Source: Gemmatimonadota bacterium
GTDB taxonomy: Bacteria; Gemmatimonadota; Gemmatimonadetes; Gemmatimonadales; Gemmatimonadaceae
Assembly: GCA_043744185.1 (NCBI GenBank)
Contig: JAYTVE010000400.1
Location: forward strand, 1 to 57,452
Reading direction: 5' to 3'
DNA: 57,452 bases
Positions 10,816-57,058 of the stretch are shown here, piece after piece. Every line of letters starts with the position of its first letter. Within the stretch, counting starts at the first letter, position 1. A model generated the notes under the pieces. That model was given only the letters and a program-made list of their open reading frames with translations. It did not search any database and had not been told where the DNA came from. The position numbers and the translations under genes are program-made.

Positions 10816-10865
10816 TTGACTTTGGGCTGTTGCAAGAATATTCGTTAAGTGTGCATAAAATACCG
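10816..10865 (+). promoter_or_regulatory. argC promoter / candidate ArgR operator region
   Basis: TTGACT (10816-10821), 17 nt of spacer, then TATTCG (10839-10844). The palindrome GAATATTC lies at 10836-10843 and TGCATAAAATA at 10852-10862. This is the only AT-rich patch in the argR-argC divergent spacer. Confidence 0.4.
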
Positions 10866-12562: not shown

Positions 12563-12573
12563 GGGCCGCTTTC

Positions 12574-18333: not shown

Positions 18334-18442
18334 AAATCTGCCCGGTTGAACAGACCTGCTCCGAGCGGTAGACGCTCGACCTGCGCGGGCGCATTATTCC
18401 TGAGTGAGTTCGAACGCCCCAACCATTTCGCCATCTTTCCGC

Positions 18443-19549
18443 ATGCACGTTGTTGTACTGAAGGAGACCGCCGAGCGGGAGCGCCGCGTAGGGCTCGTTC
18501 CCGACAGCGTCGCCCGGCTGCTGAAGGCCGGCGCGAGCGTGACGGTCGAGAGCGGCGCCGGCGTCAGCGCCGGCTACACCGACGCAGCGTACGAGAAGGC
18601 GGGTGCCACGATCGCGGCGAACGCGGCTGCAGCGACGGTGGGCGCACACGTGGTCGCCAAGGTGCAGAAGCCCACGCTTGCAGAAGCTGCGCTGCTGCCG
18701 GAGGGTTCGGTGCTCGTCAGCATGCTGCAGGCGAGCACGAGCGCCGACTTGCTGCCCGTGTTGGCGGCGCGGAAGGTCACCGCGCTCGCGCTCGAGAAGG
18801 TACCGCGCATCACGCGCGCGCAGAGCATGGACGTGCTCTCGTCGCAGGCGACGGTGGCGGGATACAAGGCCGTATTGATGGGGGCCACGCAGCTGCCGCG
18901 CTTCTTGCCCATGCTCACAACGGCCGCAGGCAACATCCCGCCGGCGAAAGCCTTCGTGCTGGGCGCAGGCGTGGCGGGGCTACAGGCGATCGCGACGGCA
19001 CGCCGACTTGGCGCGGTCGTCAGCGCCTTCGACGTGCGCGCGGCTGCCAAGGAGCAGGTGATGTCGCTGGGCGCCAAGTTCATCGCGGCCGAACTCGTGT
19101 CGAGCGGCGCGGAAACGAAGGGCGGTTACGCGAAGGAACAGGGCGAGGACGAACAGGCTCAGACGCTGGCCGCGATCGGCGCCGCAATTTCCGAGATGGA
19201 CCTCGTGATCTCGACGGCCGCAATCCCGGGCCGTCCGGCGCCGCGGCTGATCACCGCAGCCATGGTGGCCACCATGAAGCCGGGTTCGGTGATCGTGGAC
19301 GTCGCCGCCGAGACGGGCGGGAACTGCGAGCTCACCCAACCGGGTGAGACGATCGAGGTGAACGGCGTGACGATCATGGGCCCGCTCAACCTGCCGAGCA
19401 CGACGGCTGGCCACGCCAGTGCAATGTTCAGTCGCAACGTCCTCACGCTCCTGCAGCACCTCGCCCCGCAGAACACGCTCACGATCTCGCTGGACGACGA
19501 GATCACGGGCGCGATGGCCGTCACGCATGACGGCCAGCTTCGCGCTTGA
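18443..19549 (+). CDS. pntAA: NAD(P) transhydrogenase subunit alpha part 1
   Basis: Alanine-dehydrogenase/PNT fold with the Rossmann motif VLGAGVAGLQAIATARRLGA. Start re-set to ATG 18443 (MHVVVLKE). Confidence 0.92.
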   Translation: MHVVVLKETAERERRVGLVPDSVARLLKAGASVTVESGAGVSAGYTDAAYEKAGATIAANAAAATVGAHVVAKVQKPTLAEAALLPEGSVLVSMLQASTSADLLPVLAARKVTALALEKVPRITRAQSMDVLSSQATVAGYKAVLMGATQLPRFLPMLTTAAGNIPPAKAFVLGAGVAGLQAIATARRLGAVVSAFDVRAAAKEQVMSLGAKFIAAELVSSGAETKGGYAKEQGEDEQAQTLAAIGAAISEMDLVISTAAIPGRPAPRLITAAMVATMKPGSVIVDVAAETGGNCELTQPGETIEVNGVTIMGPLNLPSTTAGHASAMFSRNVLTLLQHLAPQNTLTISLDDEITGAMAVTHDGQLRA

Positions 19550-19565
19550 TCCCCTCGGAGCACCG

Positions 19566-19871
19566 ATGACGACCACGTACATCCTGCAGCTCTACGTCTT
19601 CATTCTGGCCGGCTTTGTCGGCTACAGCATCATCACGCGCGTGCCGCCCCTGCTGCACACGCCGCTGATGTCGGCCACCAACGCCATCTCGGCGATCTCG
19701 ATCGTCGGCGCGCTCGTGGTGGCGGGCTCGAAGCACGGACTGCTGTCCTCGATCCTCGGCACCATCGCGGTGACCTGCGCGACGATCAACGTCGTCGGCG
19801 GCTTCATCATCACGGACCGCATGCTGAGCATGTTCAAGCACGCGACCGGAAAGAAGGAAGAGGCGAAGTGA
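19566..19871 (+). CDS. pntAB: NAD(P) transhydrogenase subunit alpha part 2 (membrane)
   Basis: 101-aa three-helix membrane protein with the characteristic LHTPLMSATNAISAISIVGAL segment. Confidence 0.9.
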   Translation: MTTTYILQLYVFILAGFVGYSIITRVPPLLHTPLMSATNAISAISIVGALVVAGSKHGLLSSILGTIAVTCATINVVGGFIITDRMLSMFKHATGKKEEAK

Positions 19872-21310
19872 CCGGCATCGGCTTCCTCTCGGTCGCAGCG
19901 ACGGAGGTGGGTGAGGGATCGCTCGTCCGCACGCTGCTGACGCAGGGCACGTACCTCGCGGCCGGCATCTTCTTCATTCTCGGCCTCAAGTCGCTCACGC
20001 ATCCCGACTCGGCGCGAAAGGGCATGCAGCAGGCCGCGATCGGCATGCTGCTCGCCATCATCGGCACGCTGATCGTCGAGGACATCGTCGAGTACCAGTG
20101 GATCATCGGTGCGCTGATCGTCGGCACCGTGATCGGCTATCCGCTTGGCACGCGCGTGCCGATGACGGCGATGCCGCAGCGCATCGCGATCTCGCACATG
20201 TTCGGCGCTCTCGCGGCGTCACTTGTCGGCATCGCCGAGTATCTGCACCGCACGGCCGATGGCGGCACGGTGCCGCGCGCGCAGATGGCTGCGCTGGGCT
20301 TCGAAGTGCTGTTCGGCTCGCTGACGGTGACCGGGTCGTTCATGGCGTTCGGCAAGCTGCAGGAGTTCCTGCCGGGCCGGCCCGTGACCTACAAGGGACA
20401 GAACGCGGTCAACATCTCGGCGTTCATCGGCGCGCTGGGGCTGTGGCTCTGGCTCATCGTCGACCCGACGGCCGCGTGGGCATTCTGGAGCATGACCATC
20501 CTGGCCTTCATCATCGGCGTCTCGATGGTGCTGCCGATCGGCGGCGCCGACATGCCGGTGGTCGTCTCGTTGCTCAACTCGTACGCGGGCCTCGCGGCGA
20601 GCGCCACGGGCTTCGCGATCGGCAACACGGTCTTGATCATCGCGGGAGCGCTCGACGGTGCGAGCGGCTTCATCCTGTCGCTGATCATGTCGAAGGCGAT
20701 GAACCGGTCGTTCGGCAACGTCATCTTCGGCGCGTTCGGTGCGGCTCCCGAGTCCACCGCCAAGAGCAACGCCGGTCTCACGGTGAAGTCGATCAGTGCA
20801 GAGGACGCCGCGATCCAGCTCGCGTATGCCCAGAAGGTGATTGTTGTGCCCGGGTATGGCATGGCGGTCGCGCAGGCGCAGCACACCGTTCGCGAGCTCG
20901 CCGAGTTGATCGAGAAGAAGGGTGGCGAGGTGAAGTACGCGATTCATCCGGTGGCCGGGCGCATGCCGGGCCACATGAACGTGCTGCTCGCCGAGGCCAA
21001 CGTGCCGTACGAAAAGCTGTACGACATGGAGGAGATCAACGCCGAGTTTCCCACGGCCGACGTGGCGCTCGTGATCGGCGCGAACGACGTGGTGAACCCC
21101 GCCGCGAAGCACGACAAGGGGTCGCCGATTTACGGCATGCCGATTCTCGACGTGGATCAGGCCAAGTCGGTCATCGTGATGAAGCGCTCGATGAACGCCG
21201 GCTTTGCGGGCATCGAAAATGAGCTCTTCTACGACCCCAAGACGAGCATGCTGTTTGGCGATGCCAAGACGTCGCTCATGAAGCTCGTGAGTGAAGTGAA
21301 GGCGCTCTAA
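19868..21310 (+). CDS. pntB: NAD(P) transhydrogenase subunit beta
   Basis: GTG start overlaps the pntAB TGA (GTGA). Polytopic N-terminus plus a C-terminal NADP(H) domain with VVPGYGMAVAQAQH and GANDVVNPAA. Confidence 0.95.
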   Translation: MTGIGFLSVAATEVGEGSLVRTLLTQGTYLAAGIFFILGLKSLTHPDSARKGMQQAAIGMLLAIIGTLIVEDIVEYQWIIGALIVGTVIGYPLGTRVPMTAMPQRIAISHMFGALAASLVGIAEYLHRTADGGTVPRAQMAALGFEVLFGSLTVTGSFMAFGKLQEFLPGRPVTYKGQNAVNISAFIGALGLWLWLIVDPTAAWAFWSMTILAFIIGVSMVLPIGGADMPVVVSLLNSYAGLAASATGFAIGNTVLIIAGALDGASGFILSLIMSKAMNRSFGNVIFGAFGAAPESTAKSNAGLTVKSISAEDAAIQLAYAQKVIVVPGYGMAVAQAQHTVRELAELIEKKGGEVKYAIHPVAGRMPGHMNVLLAEANVPYEKLYDMEEINAEFPTADVALVIGANDVVNPAAKHDKGSPIYGMPILDVDQAKSVIVMKRSMNAGFAGIENELFYDPKTSMLFGDAKTSLMKLVSEVKAL

Positions 21311-34708: not shown

Positions 34709-34918
34709 TTACCCCGCCTTCGTCACGTCCGCGGCTTGCGGACCCTTCTGGCCCTGGACGATCTCGAACTCCACCTTGTCCCCTTCAGCAAGCGACTTGA
34801 AGCCACTGCCTTGGATGGCGCTGAAGTGCACGAACACGTCGGGCCCCCCCTCGCGCGAGATGAAGCCGAAGCCCTTGGCGTCGTTGAACCACTTCACACT
34901 GCCGGTGATCCTTGCCAT
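34709..34918 (-). CDS. cspA: cold-shock protein (CspA family), second paralog
   Basis: [14 protein letters not shown] and VFVHFSAI motifs. 69 aa. About three-quarters identical to the 5223-5438 product by eye. Confidence 0.95.
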
Positions 34919-35120
34919 ACGACGTTCCCTCGTCCCACTGGGACAATCATGGTGAAGCGAGACGTCGGTGCCTGGACGCAGGTGTGTCGCACACCAGCCG
35001 GCCAGATCCCGGCATCAGAAGTGCGGCTAGTATAGCGTTTTCTGGTCCGCAACGCACGACCGCCGATCACCCCGGGGGATGGTCGGCGGTCACAAAGGTC
35101 GGTTGGAACCCAGCGAGTGG

Positions 35121-35333
35121 TCAGGCGGCGCCGGCGATGTAGCGGGCGAATCGGCCGCAGTTGGTGCACGTCAGCGTGACGTGCGACAGGGGCGGCGGCG
35201 GTGCCTTGTTCGGGTCGCGCTTGATCTTTCCGGAGCAGCTCGGACAGCTCAACGCGGCTCCCTGACGATCACTCGTAATGAGGTGGAGGGCTTGGGCCGG
35301 ATTGAATGAATTCGGGCGCGGCTTCCGCATCAT
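35121..35333 (-). CDS. small Cys4 zinc-ribbon protein (70 aa)
   Basis: AGGAGG immediately upstream of ATGATG at 35333. CPSC...CTNC cysteine pairs. The N-terminal part of the track ORF was discarded. Confidence 0.55.
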   Translation of the reverse strand: MMRKPRPNSFNPAQALHLITSDRQGAALSCPSCSGKIKRDPNKAPPPPLSHVTLTCTNCGRFARYIAGAA

Positions 35334-35818
35334 GCCTCCTAGAGATGTCCCTTTCTCGGCGCGAGAACGACGCACCGACGAATAACACATCCTAACCACC
35401 AAGTTGCCTAAATTGAAGGGCCCCTTGCACTTGCACGCTTGTTCCTGAAAACGTCCTAGGCGAAGTCTTCTGTAATCGGACTATACAGTCCAGTCGTATC
35501 ATCATGTTTGGCAAGTGGTTGTACCATCCAGCTCAGAGTCGGCGTGCGCGAGATTAGGACCGAGAGTCCGAAACGAGGTCCGAGCGTTCGTCCGAATGGC
35601 AGCGGTCGTGGTCGCTTCTGGGCCGCGCGCGCGCGCCCGCGCGCACCCGCGCGCCATGCCGGCTCGACTCCGGGCACCGCTTGTACGAGGAACTGCAGTC
35701 TCGACCGGTGGCGAAGAACACGAATCACGCCACGCTCGACGCTGCGACCGCGGTGCGCGCTCAACCCCCGCCCTCACGCGCGCGTAGGCCTCGGCGCGCA
35801 GATCGCGAGGCGGCGCCC

Positions 35819-37357
35819 CTACCGGGCCCCGCTGCGCCCGATGTGTGCGAGCGCACCGCGCGCCGCCCGCACCCCTTGATCTTGCGCCTCCTCAAAGATC
35901 GAGAGCCCGCTCAGGTCGGCATGTCCGTACCAGATCGGACCGCGCGACGCGGCGAGCGCCGTCCGCCACGGCGCCGAGAGGAATCCCGGCTCCGGTCGCG
36001 CCATGGCGTGCGCGTACCTGCGAATGTCGACGCGCGACACGACGCGGCGCAGCGTCGGATGTGCGCGCTCGAGATCAGCCAGCACCAACTCGCTCGCCTG
36101 CGGAAAGCTGAGCGCGCGCAGTGCGCGTCGAGCCTCGAGCGGAGTCTGGTGCACGAGGGCGTGGTAGTACGTCCAGACCGTGGGGCCGCCGGAACGCGTC
36201 AGCCGCTGGTGCGTGGCGTTCACATACCCGAGTCCCGGGGAGTCGACCAAGGTGTTGTCCCACGCCGGCGAACTCCCCTGCTCGTCGGGCCATTCGCGCA
36301 GCGTGAGGTTGGCTACCAGCCACGGGGCCGTCGTCATGACGGGCGGCGGACCGAACCCATCGATCACGCGCGCGCCGACGAAGACGGGCGCCGCCCAGAT
36401 ACAGGCGTCGGCGGTGTACTCCTCGTGTTCCGTGCGCACGACGACCGTGCGCGATCCGCGCGGTTGCGAGACGGCGCGCACCGCGGCCCCAGTGCGCACG
36501 CGCGCACCGACGCGCTCGATCAGGCGCTCGACGATCCAGCCATTGCCCTGCGGCCAGGTCAGCGGCCCCTTTTCGTCCGACTCGCGCGCGACGAAGTAGT
36601 GAAGCCCCGCCCACGCCGACGCGTCGCGCGCCGACGTGCCATAATCGTCGCGAACTGCGTAGTCCGCATACCAGCGCAGCGCCCGCGTGTGGAAGCCCTC
36701 GCGGTCGAGCCACTGTGCAAGCGTCAGCGCATCGAGCGCGGAACGGGAAGGCCGCCCGCGCGAAACCGGAATGGTGAATTCTCCCGTCGCCCGTAACGCC
36801 GCAAGCCGCTCCTGGAAGCGGCGCCACTCCGAACGATCGACGGCGCTGTCGTTCAGCATGGCGTCGAACCCTTCGTGCCAAGCGCCTCGCCAGAAGAGGC
36901 GTTCCTGCGGTGACTGGCAGAGCACGCGCTCGTCCCATGCGCCATCGCGCAAGACGCCGACCTCCTCGAAGAACTTGCGCGCGAGGGTGGCACTCTTGCC
37001 GGGCACGGGCACATAGTGCGCGCCCCACGGATATGCGGAGACGTCGTTGCGCCCGCCGCGCGCATTGCCGCCCGCCTCGGCGCCGAGTTCGAGCACGACA
37101 TAGTCACGGAAGCCGCGCTTCTCGCACCACCACGCTGCCGAGAGGCCGGCAATGCCGCCGCCGACTATTACCAAGGGCACGCGTCGTCGCTCCCGCACGG
37201 GGCCCAATGCACGACTGTCGCGCAAGCGATGACCGGCGTCACCATCGTCTTCCGCGAAGCCGCCGGCGATGCCGCTGGCGCCCTTGCGCGACAGTCCGAC
37301 GAGCGCCGCGGCCGACGCCGCCATGAAGGCGCGCCGCGTGAGGGGCGAGGTCGGCAT
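35819..37357 (-). CDS. Tat-signal FAD-dependent oxidoreductase (amine-oxidase-like), last gene of the SPFH-polyamine operon
   Basis: MPTSPLTRRAFMAASAAALVGL is a twin-arginine signal. Dinucleotide-binding motif VPLVIVGGGIAGLSAAWWCEKRGFRDYVVLELGAEAGGN. ATG 37357 shares a base with the speE-like TGA (TGATG). Confidence 0.8.
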   Translation of the reverse strand: MPTSPLTRRAFMAASAAALVGLSRKGASGIAGGFAEDDGDAGHRLRDSRALGPVRERRRVPLVIVGGGIAGLSAAWWCEKRGFRDYVVLELGAEAGGNARGGRNDVSAYPWGAHYVPVPGKSATLARKFFEEVGVLRDGAWDERVLCQSPQERLFWRGAWHEGFDAMLNDSAVDRSEWRRFQERLAALRATGEFTIPVSRGRPSRSALDALTLAQWLDREGFHTRALRWYADYAVRDDYGTSARDASAWAGLHYFVARESDEKGPLTWPQGNGWIVERLIERVGARVRTGAAVRAVSQPRGSRTVVVRTEHEEYTADACIWAAPVFVGARVIDGFGPPPVMTTAPWLVANLTLREWPDEQGSSPAWDNTLVDSPGLGYVNATHQRLTRSGGPTVWTYYHALVHQTPLEARRALRALSFPQASELVLADLERAHPTLRRVVSRVDIRRYAHAMARPEPGFLSAPWRTALAASRGPIWYGHADLSGLSIFEEAQDQGVRAARGALAHIGRSGAR

Positions 37358-38853
37358 CACCGGTTGATCTGCTCGAACTCCCGTTCGTAGTAACGTACGA
37401 GCACCTGGTCGTTGAGCCGGTTGGGTTCCACGGATACGGCGCGCATGTCGAGCGGGAAGTCGAACATCGGGCCCAGCTGCGTCAAGCTCAGGAAGCGCAG
37501 CCCTGACGGCAACGCTTGCGGCATCACGTACGGCGCGGTCCCTGCGAGCACGAAGCCCCATTCGCCAAACGACGGCACGTACAGGTGGTACGGCGCCGTG
37601 GCAAACCCGGCCTCGCGCAGCGTGCGGTCGATGCACCAGAACGAGGCGCGCGCGAACAATGGCGAGGTGCTCTGCACGACGATGCGGCCGTTGCGCGTGA
37701 GATGTCGCTTGAGCAGGCGATAGAATGCCGTCGTGTAGAGCTTGCCGACCGCGTAATTGGACGGATCGGGAAAGTCGACGATCACGAAGTCGAACGTGTC
37801 GTCGTGCGCGTCGAGCCAGCTGAAGGCGTCGGCGTTGTGCACGGTGACGCGCGGATCGCTGAAGCTCCGGTGATTCAACTCGGCCAGATCGCGATGCGTG
37901 GTGAAGAGCTTCGTCATCTCGCCGTCGAGATCCACCAGCGTGGCCTTCGCGACGTTCGTGTAGCGCAGCACCTCGCGCAGCGCGAGTCCGTCGCCGCCGC
38001 CGAGGATCAGCACCCGCTGCGCACCGGGAAGTCCGGCCAGTCCCGGATGCACAAGTGCTTCGTGATAGCGGTACTCGTCTCGGCTGCTGAACTGCAGGTG
38101 GTTGTTCAGGAAAAGCCGCAGGTCGTCCTTCCAGACGGTGAGGACGATGCGCTGGTACGGCGTGTTGCGCGCGAAGATCACGTCGTCAGCGTAGAGGCCG
38201 CGCTCGGCCGCCGCCATGAGCCGGTCGCCGGCCACGAAACCGCCGATGAGGGTCGCGAGCACTGCCGCGCACGCGAGCCGCAACGCGCGCGGTGCCCCGA
38301 GCACATGGCGGAAGAGCCAGGTACTCCAAAGCGCGACGGCGGCGTTGACAATGCCGAAGCCCAGCGCGGCGCGCACCAGTCCCAGCTTGGGCACGAGCAC
38401 GAGCGGGAAGAGAATCGAGGCGATGAGAGCCCCGAGGTAGTCGAACGTCAGGACGTTGGCGACGACGTCCTTGAAGGCGAACCGCTCGCGCAGGAGTCGC
38501 ATGAGGAGCGGCACCTCGAGCCCGACGAGGGCGCCGATGATCGCCACGATCGCGTACAGGGCAACGCGAAACGATTCGGTGTAGGCAAAGGCGAGAAAGA
38601 GGAGCGTCGAGGACCAGCCGCCCACGACCGCGACGAGCAGCTCGATGGCGACAAAGCGCGCCGCGAGCCCACGGCCGATGTAGCGAGACAGCCAGCTGCC
38701 GATCCCCATCGAGGCGAGGTAGACCCCAATGACCGTCGAGAACTGCGTGACAGAATCGCCCAGGAGGTAGCTCGCGAGCGCGCCCGCGACAAGCTCATAG
38801 ACGAGCCCGCACGCAGCGATGAGGCAGACGGTGGCAAAAAGCGCCGCGGCCAC
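37357..38853 (-). CDS. speE: membrane-anchored polyamine aminopropyltransferase (spermidine-synthase-like)
   Basis: ~200-aa polytopic N-terminal domain, then a spermidine-synthase core with VLILGGGDGLALREV, VDLDGEM and IVDFPDPSN motifs. GTG start at 38853. Confidence 0.88.
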   Translation of the reverse strand: MAAALFATVCLIAACGLVYELVAGALASYLLGDSVTQFSTVIGVYLASMGIGSWLSRYIGRGLAARFVAIELLVAVVGGWSSTLLFLAFAYTESFRVALYAIVAIIGALVGLEVPLLMRLLRERFAFKDVVANVLTFDYLGALIASILFPLVLVPKLGLVRAALGFGIVNAAVALWSTWLFRHVLGAPRALRLACAAVLATLIGGFVAGDRLMAAAERGLYADDVIFARNTPYQRIVLTVWKDDLRLFLNNHLQFSSRDEYRYHEALVHPGLAGLPGAQRVLILGGGDGLALREVLRYTNVAKATLVDLDGEMTKLFTTHRDLAELNHRSFSDPRVTVHNADAFSWLDAHDDTFDFVIVDFPDPSNYAVGKLYTTAFYRLLKRHLTRNGRIVVQSTSPLFARASFWCIDRTLREAGFATAPYHLYVPSFGEWGFVLAGTAPYVMPQALPSGLRFLSLTQLGPMFDFPLDMRAVSVEPNRLNDQVLVRYYEREFEQINR

Positions 38854-38862
38854 GCGCCGAGC

Positions 38863-39072
38863 CTAGTGGATGCTCGCCGCGATGATGATGGAAATCCCGA
38901 TGCCCAAGCACCCCATGAGGATCGCGATGGCCGTGTTCTTCTGCTGGAGGATTTCGTTCCAGAGGTGGCCCGGCGTGAGCTTGTCGACGGCCATGAACGC
39001 ACCGAGCAGGATGACGATCCCCAGCACGGCGTAGATGGTGCTCGCGATGACGTTCTTCAGCAGGGTATCCAT
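38863..39072 (-). CDS. DUF350 (YjfL-like) small membrane protein
   Basis: 69 aa with two helices. NVIASTIYAVLGIVILLGAFMAVDKLTPG...NTAIAILMGCLGIGISIIIAASI matches the DUF350 repeat pattern. Confidence 0.8.
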   Translation of the reverse strand: MDTLLKNVIASTIYAVLGIVILLGAFMAVDKLTPGHLWNEILQQKNTAIAILMGCLGIGISIIIAASIH

Positions 39073-39085
39073 GGGGCGCTGTGCC

Positions 39086-39271
39086 TCACTTGCCGTAGGA
39101 AGTTCGGCCGCCGTAGTAGGTCGACCGATAAGAGCCGGGATTGCTGCGGATGGAGCGCGGGTCGCCGTGATTCTCGTGGGCGCCGGAGAAGCTGGTACCG
39201 GTGAACTCGAGCCATGCCGCGGTGGCCAGCACGAGCACGCCGAAAGCGAGGTAGAAGCGCGGCAGGGGCAT
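39086..39271 (-). CDS. 61-aa single-pass membrane peptide
   Basis: ATG 39271 shares a base with the upstream TGA (TGATG). TM segment FYLAFGVLVLATAAWLEF, then a Gly/Ser/Tyr/Arg-rich tail. The call rests on translational coupling and position. Confidence 0.5.
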   Translation of the reverse strand: MPLPRFYLAFGVLVLATAAWLEFTGTSFSGAHENHGDPRSIRSNPGSYRSTYYGGRTSYGK

Positions 39272-40596
39272 CAGTCGTCGGAGCTGGAGTCGTCGGAGTC
39301 GTCGTCGCTTGAGGCGCCGGCCTTGGGCGCGAAGTCGGACTCGGCCCATCGCGTCGTCTCGAAGGCGGCCGAGCGGAGGCTGACAAAGATGGGCGGCAGG
39401 ATGATCAAGCCGATGGCGATGAACCACCAGAGGAAGCCTGGCCGGTCGCGGTGCACGTCCACCGACCAGTCTATTTCGCGTCCTTGGTCGGGGCCGTCGA
39501 GCTCCATGCGCAGGAACCAGCGGCCGGCCGCCACCGCAGGCACGCGCGCCGCGTCGCTGCGCGAGCCCTCGCTCCACGATTCGCCGTCGTCCACGCCGTA
39601 GTAGTAGCTCACCTCGCGCCCCACCTCGAGCACCTGCCCCGTGGAGTCGTTCACGAGCGACATCCCGAGGTAGAGCCACGAGCCGTCCACGCTCGAATGC
39701 GTGGTGAGCTCCACGTTCGATGTGCGCCCCGTAAGACGGAAGGTGTCGGAGACAAAGGGTGCCTTGTCCTGCGCGTTACCGGGATGGAACGAACCCTCGA
39801 GGTGCGCGGCCACACGGTCGGTCGCCGTCGCCACGCGCCCGACGACGACCACGACGAGCGCGAGCATGAGGACGACGAAGCCCTTCCAGTATGCCTTGGG
39901 CTTCCCTGTACGCGGGTTGGGCTGGTTGGCGAAGGTGCCGCCCGGGGCGGGGAGCGGCTGCTCGACCTTGAACGCCGAGAGCAGGCGCTCGCCGGCGGTG
40001 TACTCGCCGAGTGACCAAGTCACCTCGTCCTCGGTCTCCTCGGCCGAGAGCATGAACGGCGGCGCGATGTAGTCGCGGACGGTCACCGTGTCGCCGACGA
40101 CGACCATCCAGGGGAATTCGCCGAGGGCGAAGACCGTGGTCGCGCGCGAGGTCTGGAAGAGCTTGAACGTCTCGTCGTGCCACGAGACGGTGGGATGGGT
40201 GCGCTGCGACCCCGCCGAGGGCACGCCGCGCACGGGCACGATGTCATTCCAGTGTCCCTCGTACTCCGAGAGGTAGCGATAGCCCCGGAACGGATTGAAG
40301 AGCAGGTACTCCTGCCAGTGATACTCGACGCCTTCGACCGAGATCTGGCGGACCTGGAAGCCGATGATGTCCCACGGATCGCCCTTCCACGTGCCGCGAC
40401 TGCCGAGCGGCAGCAGCGGTCGGTGGCGGCGCAGCTTGCTGTCGAAGGTCTGCAGGACGGCGACGTTCGCGTCGCTCGCGTCGAGCACGGCCAGGCAGGT
40501 ATCGCAGACGACGCTCTGCGAGAACTGGAAGCCGCGCAGCTGGATGGCCGCACCGCAACTCGGGCAGTTGAACCCGCGGACCTGAACCGAGCTCAC
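39271..40596 (-). CDS. zinc-ribbon + DUF4178 protein fused to a two-TM-bounded extracytoplasmic domain and an acidic Ser/Asp tail
   Basis: GTG 40596 overlaps the upstream TGA (GTGA). CPSCGAAI...CDTCLAVL ribbon. DUF4178-like core (WKGDPWDIIGFQVRQ...EYHWQEYLLFNP). TM segment VVLMLALVVVVV, a ~150-aa domain, a second TM segment FLWWFIAIGLIILPPIFV and the C-terminal SSDDDSDDSSSDD. Confidence 0.75.
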   Translation of the reverse strand: MSSVQVRGFNCPSCGAAIQLRGFQFSQSVVCDTCLAVLDASDANVAVLQTFDSKLRRHRPLLPLGSRGTWKGDPWDIIGFQVRQISVEGVEYHWQEYLLFNPFRGYRYLSEYEGHWNDIVPVRGVPSAGSQRTHPTVSWHDETFKLFQTSRATTVFALGEFPWMVVVGDTVTVRDYIAPPFMLSAEETEDEVTWSLGEYTAGERLLSAFKVEQPLPAPGGTFANQPNPRTGKPKAYWKGFVVLMLALVVVVVGRVATATDRVAAHLEGSFHPGNAQDKAPFVSDTFRLTGRTSNVELTTHSSVDGSWLYLGMSLVNDSTGQVLEVGREVSYYYGVDDGESWSEGSRSDAARVPAVAAGRWFLRMELDGPDQGREIDWSVDVHRDRPGFLWWFIAIGLIILPPIFVSLRSAAFETTRWAESDFAPKAGASSDDDSDDSSSDD

Positions 40597-41228
40597 CAGC
40601 CCTCGAATTCGCGGAGGTTGCGGAGTTCGAGTTGCCGCAACTCGACGGCGTCGCCCACGAAGAGGAGCGGCGGCGACTCGCTGTAGTCGATCGTCGCGAA
40701 GCCTCCGTCCGTCGTGCGGGCGTCGGCGAACGGCACGTCGGCCACGTCGTGGTACTCGAACGGGAGTTCGCCCTCGGTACCGACGTACGCGGCGCGCGTC
40801 ACGCTCGTGATGCGGTAACGCACGCGATCGTGGTTGAAGACGATTCCTGTGTGGAGCTCCTCGTACCCCGGGAGCGGTTCCTGCGGCGTCACGTGCCGCG
40901 TGAGCACGTACTCGGCCTGCGCATCGGAAAGCCACGCGCTCGTGTCATCGTCGAAGCGACAGTGCCATTCGCTCCAGCCGCCGCCGGCCCATCGGTAGAC
41001 GAGGCGGCCGATCACGGTGAAGCCGTGGCCGTGCCAGCGTCCCTCGGTGCCGAGCTGGAGCGGCGAGGGCGTGAGCGGTACCACTGTGCCCGTCCCAACC
41101 TTGGCAAGGTCGAGGTCATGCCGCACGAGGATGGAGTGGCAATACTCGCACGAAGCCTGCACCGCCTGCGCCCATCGGAACTCGATCGTCGCGCCGCAGT
41201 TCGGGCAGTTGGCGCGCACCCGGCTCAT
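40593..41228 (-). CDS. zinc-ribbon + DUF4178 protein (soluble paralog)
   Basis: CPNCGATIEF...CEYCHSIL ribbon, then GTEGRWHGHGFTVIGRLVYRWAGGGWSEWHCRFDD (DUF4178 pattern). ATGA overlap with the AdoMetDC stop. Confidence 0.8.
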   Translation of the reverse strand: MSRVRANCPNCGATIEFRWAQAVQASCEYCHSILVRHDLDLAKVGTGTVVPLTPSPLQLGTEGRWHGHGFTVIGRLVYRWAGGGWSEWHCRFDDDTSAWLSDAQAEYVLTRHVTPQEPLPGYEELHTGIVFNHDRVRYRITSVTRAAYVGTEGELPFEYHDVADVPFADARTTDGGFATIDYSESPPLLFVGDAVELRQLELRNLREFEGW

Positions 41229-41635
41229 TCGGCGCGAATGACCCGGACGGATACGGGCGTGGTGCGCGCGCGATGGTGTCCTTCAGGGCCGTACGCGCGT
41301 TCGAGGCAGCGCACCTGGGTGACCTGCGCGCCGAGAAGCGATCGCAAGATGGAGGCGAAGTCGAACTCGTCGCGCGGCTTGCAGCAGAACAGGTTGAGGC
41401 ACAGCGTGCCGTGCTCGGGGAAGGTGTGCACGGCGAGATGCGACTCCGCGAGCATCATGAGGCCGGTCACGCCTCCGGGCGCAGGAAAACGGTGCCACTG
41501 CGTGCTGCCCACCGGAGTGAGCTGCATTTCGGTGACGATGCGCGCAAAGAGCGACTCGAGTATGGCCTGGTCGGCGAGGCGCACGGCGTCCGCGCCGCGT
41601 GTCTCGATGATCCACTCCTGTCCGTACGTGGTCAT
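41225..41635 (-). CDS. speH: S-adenosylmethionine decarboxylase proenzyme (small pyruvoyl class, SpeH-like)
   Basis: Self-processing / active-site motif MMLAESHLAVHTFPEHG (Glu-Ser cleavage site). ~136 aa. Start is ATG 41635 (TGATG) or GTG 41638 (GTGA), overlapping the SPFH stop. Confidence 0.88.
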   Translation of the reverse strand: MTTYGQEWIIETRGADAVRLADQAILESLFARIVTEMQLTPVGSTQWHRFPAPGGVTGLMMLAESHLAVHTFPEHGTLCLNLFCCKPRDEFDFASILRSLLGAQVTQVRCLERAYGPEGHHRARTTPVSVRVIRAE

Positions 41636-42570
41636 CACGATCCGCTCGGCTTGGTGGTCGATTCTGGGGCGGCGGGCGGGGTAGCGGGCGGGGCTGGCGG
41701 TTGCGCCTGCGGGTTGAGTGCGTTGGTCATGGCGTTGCCAATGCCCATGCCCGCGGCCAGCCCGGCGCCCAGTCCCGCGATGCCGCCGCCGCCCGCATTC
41801 GCTGCGGCGATCGGCACGGACTGCGCGACCTGGAACTTCATATACTGGTCGAGGTTGCCGACCATGTTCATCTGGATGCGCTGGTCGAGCACCTTCTGCA
41901 GTTCGTCGGGAAGCGACACGTTCTCGACCATGAAGGAGTCGAGCGCGAGCCCCATGTCCGCGAAGGTGGGAGCGAGCAGCGCCTTCATCGCGTCACCCAT
42001 GGCAGGCGTGTTGGCCGCCATGTCGAGGAACGGTACGCCGCTCTGCGCGAACGCAGCGGAGACCGAGCCGACGATCGTGTTGCGCAGCTGCCCCTCGATG
42101 TCGGTGACGCCGTAGCTCTCGCGCGTGCCGGAGAGCTTCGTGTGGAACGCGACGGGATCGGTGAGGTGCCAGCTGTAGATGCCGAAGGCGCGCAGCCGCA
42201 CCGCGCCGAAATCCTTGTCGCGCACCGTGACGGGATTCTGTGTCCCCCACTTCTGGTTGGTGCGCGTGCGCGTCGAGAAGAAGTAGACGTCGCTCTTGAA
42301 CGGGGACTGGAAGAGCTTGTCCCAGTTCCTGAGGTTGGTCAGCAGCGGGATGGTGCGCGTCTCGAGGGTGTGGAGACCGGGGCCGAAGCCGTCGGCGATC
42401 TTGCCCTCGTTGACGAAGAGTGCGCGCTGCGTCTCGCGCACCGTGAGTTGCCCGCCGTACTGGATTTCCTGGTCCGCCATCGGATAGCGCCACGCGAGCG
42501 TGGTATCATCCGATTCGGTCCACTGAATGACGTCGACGAACTGCTTCTTCAGAAAGTTGCCGAGACCCAT
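41635..42570 (-). CDS. SPFH/Band-7 family protein, YdjI-like subfamily
   Basis: MGLGNFLKKQFVDVIQWTESDD...LAWRYP...QYGGQLTVRETQRALFVNEGKI is the typical N-terminus of YdjI/COG4260-type SPFH proteins. Gly/Ala-rich and Pro-rich C-terminal tail. I prefer the start at 42570 to 42606. Confidence 0.85.
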   Translation of the reverse strand: MGLGNFLKKQFVDVIQWTESDDTTLAWRYPMADQEIQYGGQLTVRETQRALFVNEGKIADGFGPGLHTLETRTIPLLTNLRNWDKLFQSPFKSDVYFFSTRTRTNQKWGTQNPVTVRDKDFGAVRLRAFGIYSWHLTDPVAFHTKLSGTRESYGVTDIEGQLRNTIVGSVSAAFAQSGVPFLDMAANTPAMGDAMKALLAPTFADMGLALDSFMVENVSLPDELQKVLDQRIQMNMVGNLDQYMKFQVAQSVPIAAANAGGGGIAGLGAGLAAGMGIGNAMTNALNPQAQPPAPPATPPAAPESTTKPSGS

Positions 42571-42603: not shown

Positions 42604-42627
42604 CATGCGCGCGGTAGTGCGCGCATG
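42604..42627 (-). promoter_or_regulatory. perfect 9-bp hairpin between the lipoprotein gene and the SPFH gene
   Basis: CATGCGCGC-ggtagt-GCGCGCATG (plus-strand reading). Located in the 62-nt spacer. No U-tract, so it is an attenuator or processing site rather than a clear terminator. Confidence 0.4.
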
Positions 42628-42632
42628 GACGA

Positions 42633-43502
42633 CTAGAAGCTCAGGATCGTAAGGAGGCGGAAGTCGCGACCGAGCACGGGCACCCGCGCCAAGGCATTGC
42701 CAAGCGCCTGCGCGGGATCAAACAGGGCGAAGCCGTCACCGCCGAGGTCGAAGAGGTAGACCTGCGTGTACGGATTCGGGATGCCGCCCTGCTCATTCCA
42801 CGCCGCGATGGCGCGACGGCAGAGCTCCGGATTGAGGACCAGGCGCACCTTTTCGGGCGTGGGCGTCGGGATGCGGCCGTCACGGCGCACGACGGAGTCC
42901 TGCTGCGCGTGCGGCGAGAGCGTCTCGACGAGGGCCCCGGCGATCCACGACGTGCTGACGTCGCTCGGACGACACGGCGTGACGCGAGTGGGGACGCGCA
43001 GGTCCTCGAGCTGCTGCAGGTAAAGCGCTTCGCCGGTGCGAAGCTCGAGATCGGTAGTGTACTGGAGCCCTCGCTGCACCTGCACGACGTGGCGCTCGCG
43101 CGTGAAGCCGATCGCGCGGACCTCGACCACCCGCTTGCCGGCCGGCACGTCCAACAGCGTGAAGCGTCCCGCCGCATCGGTCACGGTCGAAAAATTTGAC
43201 GGTGGCGCGAGGGGCGACGTGTCGGTTGTGGCGAAGACCAAGGCGCCGACAACCGGCAGGCCACTCGCCGAATCGGTGACCAACCCATGCACGTCACCCG
43301 TGCCCACTTCACCTTCCGCGCTCAGTCCGCCACGAACATTGCGGCCGAACGGGATCTCGAAGAGGGAAGACGGACGGCAGCCGCCGGCCGACGCCAGAAG
43401 AAGCAGGGCGAGGGCGTGAAGGGCGGTCGAACGACGGACGCGAGGGGCCACGGCATCCTGAGGGTGAAGCTGGAACGTACCCCTCGCCAGAGGACGCGGC
43501 AA
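42633..43502 (-). CDS. lipoprotein with a carboxypeptidase-regulatory-like beta-sandwich domain
   Basis: Lipobox-like LLLLASAGGC. GLVTDSASGLPVVGALVFAT...TDAAGRFTLLDVPAGKRVVEVRAIGF is the CarboxypepD_reg pattern. Confidence 0.6.
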   Translation of the reverse strand: MPRPLARGTFQLHPQDAVAPRVRRSTALHALALLLLASAGGCRPSSLFEIPFGRNVRGGLSAEGEVGTGDVHGLVTDSASGLPVVGALVFATTDTSPLAPPSNFSTVTDAAGRFTLLDVPAGKRVVEVRAIGFTRERHVVQVQRGLQYTTDLELRTGEALYLQQLEDLRVPTRVTPCRPSDVSTSWIAGALVETLSPHAQQDSVVRRDGRIPTPTPEKVRLVLNPELCRRAIAAWNEQGGIPNPYTQVYLFDLGGDGFALFDPAQALGNALARVPVLGRDFRLLTILSF

Positions 43503-50134: not shown

Positions 50135-50359
50135 TCAGTTGGCGTACAGAACGTCACCCTCGTCGTCGAGCCCGAGCTCCGATTCCGCGCCGCAGACGCC
50201 GCAGCGGAGCATCACGTGCCACGATTCCTGCATTTCCTCCGACGCCGCCATCGTGGCCGGCGTGACCTTGACGCGCTTGTAGCTGTACTCGCCGCAACGC
50301 ACGCAGCCGTGGGCGCGCGCGATCTTTTCGGCCTGCTGTTCGGTGATGCGTTGCGTCAT
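50135..50359 (-). CDS. 74-aa Cys4 zinc-ribbon protein, translationally coupled to the SPFH gene
   Basis: CVRCGE...CGVCGA cysteine pairs. ATG 50359 overlaps the SPFH TGA (ATGA). Confidence 0.55.
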   Translation of the reverse strand: MTQRITEQQAEKIARAHGCVRCGEYSYKRVKVTPATMAASEEMQESWHVMLRCGVCGAESELGLDDEGDVLYAN

Positions 50360-51414
50360 TCGCGGCCCGGCTTCGGGCCTCCCTTCGGGTCGATGATGGC
50401 GCGGGCGGTGACCGCGGCCGTACGCGCGGTCGCTGCCACGTCATTCGCGGCGGAGTTGCTCTTGAGCAGTTCCTTGAGCCCACCGAGCGCCCCCATCACC
50501 CCTGCCGCTTCGGACGGCAGGAAGATCGTGGTCCCCTTGCCCTGCGCGATCTGGGGCAGGGCCTCGAGATACTTCATGCTGAGGAGGTACGTGGCCACGT
50601 CGCCATCCGGCAGCGCCGCCGCGATGCGCCGGATGGCTTCGGCTTCCGCGTCGGCCATCGCGATTCGCGCCTCGGCCAGGCCCTGTGCGCGCAGCACCGC
50701 CGCTTCCTTCTCGCCCTGCGCACGCAACGCCTGCGACTGCTGCGAGCCTTCCGACTCGAGGATTGCGGCGCGCTTGCTCGCCTCGGCGTTCGTGACGGCG
50801 GCGCGACGTTCGCGCTCGGCGCGCATCTGCAGCTCCATCGACTGCTGGATGTCGCGCGGCGGCTCGATGGATTGGAGCTCGACGCGCGTCACGTCCACGC
50901 CCCACGACACAGCCGCCTCTTCGATGACCTCGCGCATGCGCTTGTTGATCATGTCGCGCGAGGCGAGTGTCTGGTCGAGCTCGATCTCGCCGACGATGTT
51001 GCGCAGCGTGGTGCGCGTGAGCGTCTCGAGCGCGAACGGCAGGTTCTGCACGGCGTACGTTGCCTTCTGCGGATCGGCGACGCGATAGTACAGGACCGCG
51101 TCGATGTCGATCGTGACGTTGTCCTTGGTGATCACCGGCTGGCTCGGGAAGTTCAGCACCTGCTCGCGCAGGTCGATGCGCGCGGTGGAACCCGCCGTGA
51201 TCTTCTTGATCCCGCTGGGATCGGCCTCGAAGTAGCGCACGTCGATCGTGCGCGGTCGCTCGACGAGCGGCAGGAGAACGTTCAACCCGGAGCGTGCGAG
51301 GCGATTGAAGCGCCCGAAGCGCTCGATGACCATGACCTCCGCCTGTCCGACGATCTTGAACGACGACAGGAGCAGTACGGCGGCAGCGGCGACGACGAGC
51401 CCGATGAATAGCAT
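50356..51414 (-). CDS. SPFH/Band-7 protein (stomatin/paraslipin-like)
   Basis: N-terminal TM segment MLFIGLVVAAAAVLLLS, then KIVGQAEVMVIERFGRFNRLARSGLNVLLP and a coiled Ala/Glu/Arg-rich region typical of stomatin-type SPFH proteins. Start re-set to ATG 51414. Confidence 0.9.
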   Translation of the reverse strand: MLFIGLVVAAAAVLLLSSFKIVGQAEVMVIERFGRFNRLARSGLNVLLPLVERPRTIDVRYFEADPSGIKKITAGSTARIDLREQVLNFPSQPVITKDNVTIDIDAVLYYRVADPQKATYAVQNLPFALETLTRTTLRNIVGEIELDQTLASRDMINKRMREVIEEAAVSWGVDVTRVELQSIEPPRDIQQSMELQMRAERERRAAVTNAEASKRAAILESEGSQQSQALRAQGEKEAAVLRAQGLAEARIAMADAEAEAIRRIAAALPDGDVATYLLSMKYLEALPQIAQGKGTTIFLPSEAAGVMGALGGLKELLKSNSAANDVAATARTAAVTARAIIDPKGGPKPGRE

Positions 51415-51565
51415 GCGATGGGGTGGGTGGGGTCGTCGGATAGTACGCGGCACGCGGGGGCGCGCGGTAGGGGCATGGGCGGCAACCCTCACGCGTCCGG
51501 GGGTGCCCAAGTGCGTGAGGGCAGCACACGTTGTCCCGCACTACGCTCACATCCGAGGTCACCGC

Positions 51566-55467: not shown

Positions 55468-56325
55468 TCAGGGTGCGACCGTGCGCGGCGTCACCACGTA
55501 CTCTGCCACCCAGACACGCTTTGCCTGCCGGATGGTTGCCTGCTTCACGAGTCCGGCGGTGAGCAGCATCTCGTGCGCCGGCTGCAACACGCGCGTCAGG
55601 TGCGACGGGTAGCGCTGCGTGAGAGGGAGCAAGGCGGCCAGCTTGTCGAGCGGCAGCTTCCACTGCGTATCGCCCTGTTCGCGGACAAGCTCGAGCAAGC
55701 GGTAGAGTCGGCGCGCGACCGGCGACGGAAGCGCCTTGTACGTCTGCACGTTGAGCGTGACGTGGTGGCCCGCGACGATGTTGCTGCGGATCATCGGGCC
55801 AATCGTCACGCGCGCATCGCCCGGTTCGCCTGCCGGCAGTGCCGGAAAGAGCGAGAACTGGTCGCGATCACCCGCGCGTCGCCGGTCGATCACGATCGAG
55901 GTGAGGATCGTGAATCGTCCGTCGAGCGGCATCGCGTTCGCGGCGTCGTAGTACGCCTGCTGCGACTCGAGGATGGTGCGTTCGAGACGTGCGAGCGCCG
56001 AGCGCAGCAGTTCGTACGTGCGCCCGTCCGCGCGCCGACCCATCGAGCGCAGGAAGTCGTGCAGCGTGAAGTGCACCACACCGTCCGTGGGCGACCCGGC
56101 GTCGTGCCAGCGGTGCATCAGCTCGACGTAGACGTCCTGATCGAAGGTGCCGGGCAAGCGATCACCCGGCGCTGGCAGGACGCGCCAGCGCACCCCTTCG
56201 CCTTCCTCCCAGACGATCGCACCCTCTTCGGCCGAGTCGCTCAAGCGGAATAGCGGGAGCCTCTCGAGCGCCCGGTCGAGGCGGATGGTGCGGACCATCG
56301 CGCGGCGGCGCTCGGCGAGCGTCAT
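55468..56325 (-). CDS. replication-initiator-protein-A (RPA/RepA)-like protein
   Basis: LERLPLFRLSD...VRWRVLP...GTFDQDVYVELM...VHFTLHDFLRSMGRRADGRTYELLRSALARLERTIL follows the hallmark order of plasmid RepA 'RPA' proteins (hP-F-sLs box, then a protected-region and wHTH-like segments). Start re-set to ATG 56325. Assignment from pattern memory only. Confidence 0.55.
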   Translation of the reverse strand: MTLAERRRAMVRTIRLDRALERLPLFRLSDSAEEGAIVWEEGEGVRWRVLPAPGDRLPGTFDQDVYVELMHRWHDAGSPTDGVVHFTLHDFLRSMGRRADGRTYELLRSALARLERTILESQQAYYDAANAMPLDGRFTILTSIVIDRRRAGDRDQFSLFPALPAGEPGDARVTIGPMIRSNIVAGHHVTLNVQTYKALPSPVARRLYRLLELVREQGDTQWKLPLDKLAALLPLTQRYPSHLTRVLQPAHEMLLTAGLVKQATIRQAKRVWVAEYVVTPRTVAP

Positions 56326-56365
56326 GGTGCGGCCGAGGGGCCGGGCGTGAGCGCTCGGCGCGAGG

Positions 56366-57058
56366 TCATCCGAGCCGTACCACCTGACCCGTGATCGCGC
56401 CGGCCGCCTCGCTCGCGAGCCACGACACGGTCGCTGCCACGTGGGCGCGCTCGACATAGTCGAACGTTGACCCCATGCTCGATTCATTGACCGCCGTACG
56501 GATTGCGGTGGGGGCCACGGCGTTCGCGCGTACACCGAACTCACGCTCCTCCTGCGCGACCGTGCGCATGAAGGCGAGCAGTGCCGCCTTCGAAGCGGCG
56601 TAGCCGCTCATGTGCTTCGTGATGCCGCCCTCGAGCACGGCCGCGGCGCCGAAGTACACGATCGCACCCCGCGCGGCGCGCAGCGCAGGCAGGAACGCCT
56701 GCGTGGCCACGAAGGCCGTCTCGAGCGAGATGGCGAGTTGGCGACGCATCACCTCGATATCGGCACCGATAACGGGACCGCTCATGGCGAACCCGCCGGC
56801 CATGTGGATGAGGGCGTGCGTGCGGGTGCCCACGGCCCGCGCCACCTCGGCCACGGCGGCGCTGTTGGTGAGGTCCGCCACGTGTGCGTGCACCGTGGCG
56901 CCATGCCCGGCGAGGTCGCGCGCGCGATCGGTTACCGATGGATCACGATCGACCAGATGCAGAATGGTGCCTGATGTCGCGAACGACTGCGCGACCGCTT
57001 CCCCCACCTGACCAGGCCGGCCGACGCCGGTGAGCACGACGATGCGCGTGTCGCCCAT
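56366..57058 (-). CDS. short-chain dehydrogenase/reductase (SDR)
   Basis: VVLTGVGRPGQVGEA cofactor loop and catalytic YAASKAAL (YxxxK). Confidence 0.85.
   Translation of the reverse strand: MGDTRIVVLTGVGRPGQVGEAVAQSFATSGTILHLVDRDPSVTDRARDLAGHGATVHAHVADLTNSAAVAEVARAVGTRTHALIHMAGGFAMSGPVIGADIEVMRRQLAISLETAFVATQAFLPALRAARGAIVYFGAAAVLEGGITKHMSGYAASKAALLAFMRTVAQEEREFGVRANAVAPTAIRTAVNESSMGSTFDYVERAHVAATVSWLASEAAGAITGQVVRLG

Follow-up and report, generated by a model that had tools for sequence, protein, structure and literature searches.

The closest described relatives of the locus considered here, an eight-gene operon in a 57,452-nucleotide stretch of Gemmatimonadota DNA (contig JAYTVE010000400.1, "the window"), are operons that place a polyamine-type enzyme beside proteins of membrane maintenance. 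Ravi et al. 2024 (PMC11237479) described PspA-CesT/Tir operons with a seven-transmembrane (7TM)-spermine-synthase-like fusion, YjfL/DUF350, DUF4178 and a lipoprotein, of which the Shewanella oneidensis SO_3765 neighbourhood is an example. The same paper contains variants where a band-7 protein takes the place of the dyad, accompanied by an S-adenosylmethionine decarboxylase (AdoMetDC) and a polyamine oxidase, and these were assigned to the ATP-grasp group, not to the SpeE-fusion group. It invokes "aminopropylation of other substrates", citing Li et al. 2019, and is the only source in the literature we searched that treats DUF4178. The cluster type also occurs in Shewanella and Mycobacterium according to the literature, and Rv2597-Rv2601 of M. 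tuberculosis receive only two incidental mentions in the papers searched. On the membrane side, the Bacillus subtilis operon pspA-ydjGHI is controlled by sigma-W, and its product YdjI, a soluble SPFH protein with a low-complexity region ahead of its C-terminal zinc finger, is recruited to the membrane by YdjH and by YdjG, a membrane protein that bears a Zn-ribbon.

Thousands of class 1b AdoMetDC genes are said, in the work of Li, Kurihara, Kim, Liang and Michael, to co-occur with a fusion of a membrane domain to a spermidine-synthase (SpdSyn)-like enzyme and with DUF350. The AdoMetDCs were reportedly active, yet spermidine was reportedly absent from bacteria with the fusion, the fusion reportedly failed to complement an E. 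coli speE mutant, and its function is said to have been placed outside polyamine biosynthesis. Later papers from that laboratory cite the work without describing the cluster. The cluster type is already known, then, from comparative genomics and one biochemical study; the initial annotation of the window had referred to comparative-genomic notes of this kind, and they do exist (Ravi et al. 2024, PMC11237479).

With slightly better than even confidence, we interpret the window locus as a membrane-spanning aminopropyl-transfer system of envelope homeostasis and not as housekeeping spermidine synthesis. The eight-gene cluster is, by its sequence, a genuine, tightly packed, translationally coupled operon with a predicted single transcript. 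Its members are consecutive in the open reading frame (ORF) list of the window (35819-42570), all on the minus strand, and are called G1 to G8 below (aa, amino acids; TM, transmembrane).

G1, 41635-42570, minus strand: 311 aa, soluble YdjI-type SPFH protein (Band_7_1) with a Gly-rich low-complexity C-terminus and without a zinc ribbon
G2, 41225-41638, minus strand: 137 aa, class 1b pyruvoyl S-adenosylmethionine decarboxylase proenzyme
G3, 40593-41228, minus strand: 211 aa, cytoplasmic Zn-ribbon and DUF4178 protein
G4, 39271-40596, minus strand: 441 aa, Zn-ribbon, DUF4178, TM segment, predicted periplasmic beta-sandwich, TM segment, acidic tail
G5, 39086-39271, minus strand: 61 aa, single-TM protein of a conserved unannotated family
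G6, 38863-39072, minus strand: 69 aa, single-repeat, two-TM protein of the DUF350/YjfL family
G7, 37357-38853, minus strand: 498 aa, seven-helix membrane domain fused to an aminopropyltransferase dependent on decarboxylated S-adenosylmethionine (dcAdoMet)
G8, 35819-37357, minus strand: 512 aa, flavin amine-oxidase-family protein with an N-terminal twin-arginine motif
Inverted repeat, 42604-42627, no strand: perfect, with 9-nt arms and a 6-nt spacer, between the stop of the upstream gene and the start of G1

A base-by-base check of the junctions gave five overlaps and two gaps of at most 13 nt. G1 and G2 share GTGA at 41638-41635 (an alternative ATG would give TGATG), G2 and G3 share ATGA at 41228-41225, and G3 and G4 share GTGA at 40596-40593; TGATG joins G4 to G5 (39273-39269) and G7 to G8 (37359-37355), while gaps of 13 nt and 9 nt separate G5 from G6 and G6 from G7. 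Every junction listed in the initial annotation was exact, as was the count of eight minus-strand genes, but its deduction of stoichiometric co-expression does not follow, because overlapping stops and starts indicate coupling, not stoichiometry. The larger genes scored as coding by GC content per codon position, and a scan of the operon for internal promoter or terminator signals found none beyond shuffle expectation.

The arrangement recurs widely. Scanning one genome per species with a G7 alignment as query gave at least 565 loci, and in the protein search all 8000 of the 8000 scored candidates passed. The best 80 of these at least 565 loci, mostly from Gemmatimonadota and Acidobacteriota (Bryobacterales, Vicinamibacteria, Terriglobia), were taken, and their six-frame ORFs were searched with the eight window proteins; 57 loci had enough flank to be evaluated. 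All eight genes stand in order at 28 of the 57, with unrelated flanks, so the neighbourhood is conserved and not unique to one genome. Such an arrangement is far beyond chance, since the order is repeated in dozens of genomes whose flanks differ. One of these loci, L001 (L and P numbers are our locus labels), lies on a 1.3-Mb Gemmatimonadota contig with identical gene order and equally tight junctions, flanked by genes for an RND efflux pump and PntAB. Within Gemmatimonadota and Acidobacteriota G7 is 62-87% identical. The nearest homologues found are from Gemmatimonadota.

Gene frequencies at the 57 loci separate a core from its accessories. G7 is present at 57/57, G6 at 55/57, G4 at 54/57 and G2 at 53/57, followed by G5 (48/57), G3 (47/57, often fused to G4), G1 (45/57) and G8 (45/57). 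The core thus comprises the AdoMetDC G2, the DUF4178-TM protein G4, the DUF350 protein G6 and the fusion G7, with SPFH protein and oxidase as frequent accessories. That G1 and G8 are the most dispensable members leaves the earlier proposal that an SPFH protein organises the whole module without support. Longimicrobiaceae lack the SPFH gene; there G3 and G4 form a single fused protein of 633 aa, and an additional gene of 230 aa with similarity to G4 lies between the DUF350 and transferase genes (L003 8001-9902 and 10319-11011; P0019, P0024, P0026 and others). All families recur, rearranged into two divergent units, on a Ralstonia solanacearum megaplasmid (CP144383.1, 1687802-1699688): one runs from DUF350 through SPFH (with SHOCT), a DUF4178 membrane protein and a 61-aa TM protein to speD, and the other from livKHMGF through the speE fusion (57% identical to G7) to a flavoprotein with a Tat (twin-arginine translocation) signal. 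G7 and G4 both have matches on plasmids of Novosphingobium, Burkholderia and Tritonibacter; in Alteromonas, Ensifer, Bacillus and others the only match is to G7.

The two polyamine-type enzymes bear most directly on the chemistry. G2 matches AdoMet_dc (PF02675) with E = 1.1e-22 and 80.9 bits (cutoff 25) and is borderline for the NCBIfam equivalog TIGR03330, scoring 68.2 bits under a trusted cutoff of 75.65; neofunctionalised SpeD homologues exist. Aligned to the T. maritima AdoMetDC 1tlu, it keeps the E-S cleavage site and the equivalents of the His and Cys, LAESHLAVHTFPE...NLFCC pairing with ISESHLTIHTWPE...DLFTC of 1tlu. In the T. maritima enzyme the Glu-Ser pair is the self-cleavage site, and the His and Cys are H68 and C83. 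G7 matches Spermine_synth (E = 8.9e-38) and, across residues 3-495, the "polyamine aminopropyltransferase" equivalog NF002956/PRK03612 (680.2 bits, cutoff 472); it falls under the speE equivalog cutoffs, with 131.8 against 249.55 bits for TIGR00417 and 157.3 against 260 bits for NF002010. Its GGGDG motif (G285-G289) and the D360 and D363 of D-x-x-D are invariant in 55 G7 homologues, and G7 has the complete set of acidic residues that bind dcAdoMet and amine. The nearest solved relatives of the catalytic half are the T. thermophilus triamine/agmatine aminopropyltransferase, which is the nearest of all solved structures to G7, Pyrobaculum SpeE and thermospermine synthases.

An AlphaFold2 (AF2) model of G7 places seven helices in the N-terminal 215 residues, ahead of a SpeE fold, and the top 50 Foldseek matches of this model are all SpeE-fold enzymes, with no relative of the membrane domain among them. 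Taken alone, the membrane domain has no Pfam match and no sequence relative in PDB, and neither search detected lipid-binding or flippase homology. Column identity is 0.79-0.85 in this domain against 0.82 in the catalytic domain, with E20, D33, E71, E113, R119, D138 and N170 invariant, a level of conservation that by sequence far exceeds the needs of a mere anchor. Because it is conserved like the catalytic domain and carries invariant acidic residues, the membrane domain may handle or translocate substrate, product or dcAdoMet.

These properties can be set against an ordinary free-polyamine pathway, in which SpeD and a membrane-anchored SpeE make spermidine, thermospermine, norspermidine or aminopropylagmatine, the membrane domain exports, the oxidase turns over, and the other genes are loosely associated. 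Such a pathway would account for the complete catalytic motifs in G2 and G7, for the NF002956 match, for solved G7 relatives that make aminopropylagmatine, long polyamines or thermospermine, and for the resemblance of G8 to polyamine and putrescine oxidases. It accounts poorly for six further genes that are co-conserved and translationally coupled across phyla, for a membrane domain conserved like the catalytic one, and for the speE scores of G7; it also conflicts with Li et al. 2019, cited in PMC11237479, where both spermidine and complementation were reportedly lacking. We consider this pathway possible but unlikely. The initial annotation had presented the two enzymes as a complete route from putrescine to spermidine, and as a statement of function this is not supported: G7 lies under the speE cutoff, its nearest relatives are agmatine/triamine and thermospermine enzymes, and PMC11237479 speaks of "other substrates".

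A different match of G7, to the PADLOC model mad2 (residues 272-421, E = 3.6e-19), raises the question of an anti-phage defence or conflict system using SPFH, Zn-ribbon and methyltransferase-fold proteins, for which one copy on a megaplasmid could also be cited. We attribute the match to the common Rossmann methyltransferase fold, not to defence. PADLOC matches one of the eight proteins and does so through that generic fold, there are no PHROG matches besides one to AdoMetDC, and the vertical conservation in two phyla is unlike that of patchy defence islands; with one generic PADLOC match and PHROG matching AdoMetDC only, we reject the defence reading as extremely improbable.

Where the catalytic domain of G7 resides depends on the last helix. 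Loops 2, 4 and 6 have a mean of 8.3 Lys and Arg residues across the 55 homologues, compared with 0.7 on the opposite side, and this charge bias predicts a cytoplasmic location for these loops and for the N-terminus. Helix 7 matches the other helices in hydrophobicity, is poorly conserved and is followed by an acidic segment. If it spans the membrane, the transferase domain would be periplasmic and export of dcAdoMet would be required; if it is a non-spanning linker, the transferase domain would be cytoplasmic. Helix 7 of the Ralstonia speE fusion is less hydrophobic, and this sequence leans toward the linker. We hold only as a doubtful, rather improbable variant that the aminopropyltransferase domain is periplasmic, with the acid-rich membrane domain exporting dcAdoMet to an extracytoplasmic active site, and with aminopropylation and oxidative removal by a Tat-exported oxidase taking place on an envelope component outside the cytoplasm, under the control of an extracytoplasmic function (ECF) sigma factor. 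Were it true, periplasmic catalysis by G7 would, to our knowledge, be the first case described in which an AdoMet-derived group is transferred outside the cytoplasmic membrane.

The putative oxidase G8 matches the FAD/NAD(P) Rossmann families NAD_binding_8 and DAO. The window protein has no PF01593 match at E <= 0.01, although its homologues do match PF01593, and a G8 profile searched against PDB finds PAI, MAO-B, putrescine oxidase and Fms1 with E = 6.6e-10 to 5e-7 (MAO, putrescine oxidase and Fms1 at 1e-8 to 5e-7), with 2b9w and MAO-A also among the matches. The amine-oxidase assignment made in the initial annotation is thus a profile-level one, resting on these similarities and on the PF01593 matches of the homologues. 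About 60 of 66 G8 homologues carry an [ST]RRxF motif; the h-region is short in the window protein, and the Ralstonia flavoprotein bears a textbook Tat signal.

The remaining domains that had been assigned to the operon, SPFH and DUF4178 and DUF350 along with AdoMetDC and Spermine_synth, all scored over their profile thresholds. G1 matches Band_7_1 (PF13421) with E = 3.7e-74 and 249 bits, has no predicted TM segment, and has its start at 42570 backed by homologue N-termini; a sequence search of PDB with G1 returned no match. Its description as YdjI-like stands for the Band_7_1 domain and the lack of a TM segment, and not for the zinc ribbon. Whereas 56 of 61 G1 homologues end in a low-complexity stretch and a zinc ribbon (KFCxxCG...KFCPECG), the ribbon is missing from window G1, which ends ...TTKPSGS without Cys pairs, and from L005 and L006; from these sequences we read it as lost in window G1 and its two closest relatives. 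This C-terminal module is swappable among the SPFH homologues: a zinc ribbon in most, SHOCT in L077 and in Ralstonia (L086 9932-10963), and nothing in the window lineage (window 41635-41790). A second, unrelated SPFH/Band_7 protein (PF01145) is encoded 8 kb away, at window 50356-51510 on the minus strand, among genes for an HD-domain protein, a TPR protein and an S41 peptidase.

Both DUF4178 proteins are well supported by PF13785 (G3, E = 7.8e-17, 62.1 bits; G4, E = 2.4e-20, 73.5 bits; cutoff 25). G3, a soluble protein, is 27% identical to G4 residues 1-163, and the N-terminal half of G4 is its paralogue; because natural G3-G4 fusion proteins occur, the two probably work together. The AF2 model of G4, with a mean predicted local distance difference test (pLDDT) score of 91.3, runs from a zinc ribbon through a beta-rich DUF4178 domain, a TM helix (232-257), a beta-sandwich of about 125 residues (261-383) and a second TM helix (389-418) to an acidic tail. 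In this model the beta-sandwich must be periplasmic, which agrees with the two-TM extracytoplasmic domain already proposed for G4. A Foldseek search of the G4 model against PDB returned only generic beta-sandwich, jelly-roll and GOLD-like folds, with whole-chain TM-scores under 0.2 and no functional lead.

The two smallest proteins are also conserved. G5 has no Pfam or NCBIfam match; its homologues occupy the same slot at the 48 loci counted above and have in common an N-terminal TM helix together with the motif P-[KR]-[ST]-[VI]-R-[DN]-N-P-G-[AS]-Y-R. The 61-aa TM protein of Ralstonia is its equivalent by position. About 21 small-protein clusters among 1.84 billion representatives are related to it, and the sequences indicate that it is a real gene of a conserved small-protein family. 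G6 matches DUF350 (PF03994; E = 2.8e-12, 47.3 bits, cutoff 26) over positions 2-65 of the 133-position profile, about half of it and a single repeat, and is predicted to have two TM segments.

Upstream sequences supply a link to stress regulation. A search of 2.7 Mb of collected sequence for the motif [GT]GAAC-N15-18-CGT(T)ATA gave 26 matches, 23 of them just upstream of the SPFH gene; the motif resembles the B. subtilis SigW promoter (TGAAAC...CGTATA). The 23 loci are acidobacterial (L010, L011, L014, L018, L020, L024, L026, L028, L029, L031, L040, L041, L045, L053, L055, L057, L066, L068, L072, L075, L079, L081 and L082), and where the full start could be located the motif lies at most 38 nt from the SPFH start. 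A looser pattern is found in 21 of 48 upstream regions, compared with a background of 0.0034 per 160 nt. The position of the motif before the SPFH gene marks this gene as the first of the transcript, and the operon presumably belongs to an ECF-type, envelope-stress regulon in its acidobacterial carriers. A second clade (L001, L060, L062, L063, L065, L069, L070, L078) has instead a sigma-70-like TTGACA-N17-TA[GC][CG]AT, also seen as TTGACA-N17-TAGCAT, about 50-65 nt before the SPFH start, with a palindromic TGCAAT...ATTGCA-like element, a possible operator, ahead of it.

Both the ECF motif and the sigma-70-like motif are missing upstream of G1 in the window and in its nearest relatives, and the regulatory argument is for this reason not directly transferable to the window. 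The envelope-stress framing of the initial annotation remains plausible through the acidobacterial relatives, with no ECF promoter in the window itself. What does stand there is the inverted repeat at 42604-42627 (CATGCGCGC / GCGCGCATG, separated by the 6-nt spacer), which may be the terminator of the upstream gene or an operator; L005 has a GC hairpin of different sequence at the same place. The gene immediately upstream (42633-43502, minus strand) encodes a CarboxypepD_reg-domain protein. Judging from similar C-terminal coding sequence, it apparently also lies upstream in L005 and L006; it is not found in more distant operon loci.

Promoter, topology and export signals together bear on the idea that G7 aminopropylates a lipid head group or envelope amine that is then exposed outside, in the manner of MprF, where a synthase is fused to a membrane domain that translocates, with the oxidase as eraser and a tunable surface charge under ECF control. 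The fusion of a conserved polytopic domain to the transferase, the twin-arginine motif of the oxidase, the predicted periplasmic domain of G4 and the ECF-type promoter in relatives all fit this idea, as do the alternation of SPFH and PspA as partners in related operons and the argument for a non-polyamine acceptor (both PMC11237479). Set against these are the lack of any detected lipid-binding or flippase homology and the retention of the second Asp of D-x-x-D, which suggests an acceptor with a distal positive charge. We also know of no aminopropylated lipid, and this counts against the idea, which we judge fairly unlikely.

Returning to the aminopropyl-transfer system that we favour, its steps can be sketched as follows. 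G2, given its intact processing and catalytic residues, would make dcAdoMet in the cytoplasm. G7 would use it to aminopropylate an amine acceptor, probably one other than the free putrescine of the bulk spermidine pool, and its seven-helix domain would handle or translocate substrate, product or dcAdoMet. The co-conserved membrane proteins G4, G5 and G6 and the soluble G3 may form a complex with G7, as suggested by strict co-occurrence, translational coupling and the G3-G4 fusions. Within it, a trans-membrane sensor or receptor could be made up of the G4 beta-sandwich on the periplasmic side and the Zn-ribbon-DUF4178 modules in the cytoplasm. G1 would be recruited to the complex as an accessory scaffold, with G3/G4 the likely receptor by analogy with YdjG/YdjH. 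The accessory G8, if Tat-exported, could oxidise or remove the aminopropylated product on the periplasmic side. The pathway would cross the membrane because the cytoplasmic AdoMetDC lacks an export signal, the oxidase bears a Tat motif and G4 includes a periplasmic domain. Envelope stress may induce the operon, as the sigma-W-like ECF promoter in acidobacterial relatives suggests.

Several points weigh against the system as sketched. The loop charges leave open the side on which the G7 catalytic domain lies, and G8 matches neither PF10518 nor TIGR01409, which keeps the Tat signal of the initial annotation at the level of the motif. Motif and promoter scans upstream of G1 in the window returned no ECF motif or recognisable promoter. 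The analyses establish the domain identities, the G4 topology, the co-conservation and the promoter motif; acceptor and direction of transport are deduced, and the complex and the recruitment of the SPFH protein are postulated by analogy only. The retained D-x-x-D is what a diamine or polyamine acceptor would be predicted to need. The literature on this exact cluster is without experiments on any member. The absence of spermidine is a reported finding of Li et al. 2019.

The surroundings of the operon offer some further observations. The operon has no PspA gene, and the scan of long ORFs elsewhere in the window found neither PspA nor a further polyamine gene. Polyamines can derive from arginine and ornithine, and an arginine-biosynthesis cluster (argininosuccinate synthase, ArgR, ArgC-like, ArgB-like, class-III aminotransferase) lies at 8883-13818, about 25 kb from the operon; this proximity is probably coincidental and the cluster unrelated. 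PntAB genes stand at 18404-21310 on the plus strand, about 15 kb away, and directly adjoin the operon in L001 (13473-16465), and may be a remnant of shared synteny. G8 is followed by a non-coding gap of about 480 nt, a small Cys-rich ORF (CxxC...CxxC; about 35120-35335, minus strand) and, about 900 nt downstream of G8, a cold-shock-domain gene (34709-34918, minus strand); a second cold-shock-domain gene is at 5103-5438 on the plus strand. An ORF at 55468-56544 (minus strand) matches Replication initiator protein A (PF10134, E = 2.1e-17), and Gemmatirosa kalamazoonensis carries a copy of the operon on a 1.1-Mb plasmid. On the strength of these two observations, a megaplasmid or chromid is a possible source of the window.

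Our findings concern a cluster type that is very widespread, in soil Acidobacteriota, in Gemmatimonadota and in Ralstonia. If the fused enzyme aminopropylates a substrate other than putrescine, this would be a new use of dcAdoMet, tied to membrane maintenance of the SPFH/PspA type. To the published association we add the core and accessory gene sets, the conserved 61-aa family, the G3-G4 fusions in Longimicrobiaceae, the twin-arginine motif of the oxidase, the YdjI-like zinc ribbon in most SPFH homologues, the ECF promoter in acidobacterial relatives and the question of G7 topology. These details make a vague association experimentally addressable in a genetically tractable carrier, Ralstonia solanacearum.

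Comparison with known systems places the operon among several partial relatives. It shares both enzyme folds and their catalytic motifs with canonical speD-speE, but G7 is fused to a conserved polytopic domain, scores below the speE equivalog cutoff and sits in an operon with six further partners. E. coli yjfIJKLMC, which belongs to the third group in PMC11237479, likewise sets DUF350 (YjfL) beside a membrane-remodelling protein and a polyamine-related enzyme; there, however, the enzyme is an ATP-grasp glutathionylspermidine-synthetase-like ligase and not an aminopropyltransferase, the partner is PspA/CesT-like and not SPFH, and DUF4178, AdoMetDC and oxidase are missing. With B. subtilis pspA-ydjGHI (samGHI) the operon has in common a soluble Band-7/SPFH protein with a low-complexity C-terminus (to which most G1 homologues add a zinc ribbon), a candidate receptor in the form of a Zn-ribbon membrane protein and, in acidobacterial homologues, a promoter resembling that of SigW. 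The window operon differs in having no PspA, YdjH/TPM, NTF2-like YdjG domain, G1 zinc ribbon or ECF motif, and the Bacillus operon in having no polyamine-type enzymes.

Other likenesses are found among clusters that contain the fusion. Those of Li and colleagues reportedly combine a class 1b AdoMetDC, a fusion of an N-terminal membrane domain to a C-terminal aminopropyltransferase, and DUF350. The Ralstonia locus has DUF350, SPFH, a DUF4178 membrane protein, a 61-aa TM protein, speD, the speE fusion and a Tat-signal flavoprotein, but in two divergent units with a livKHMGF-type ABC transporter between them; it has a single DUF4178 gene, a four-TM DUF350 protein, an SPFH protein that ends in SHOCT, and a 61-aa protein with a Gly/Ser/Tyr-rich tail instead of the RDNPGAYR motif. 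The PspA-CesT/Tir operons share with the window the 7TM-SpeE fusion, DUF350, DUF4178 and the same logic of a membrane-dynamics partner. Where those operons have PspA, CesT/Tir, the Ctha_1186 lipoprotein and an RHH regulator, all absent from the window operon, the latter has an SPFH protein (Band_7_1), two DUF4178 paralogues, one of them with a predicted periplasmic domain, a two-TM DUF350 protein and the 61-aa protein.

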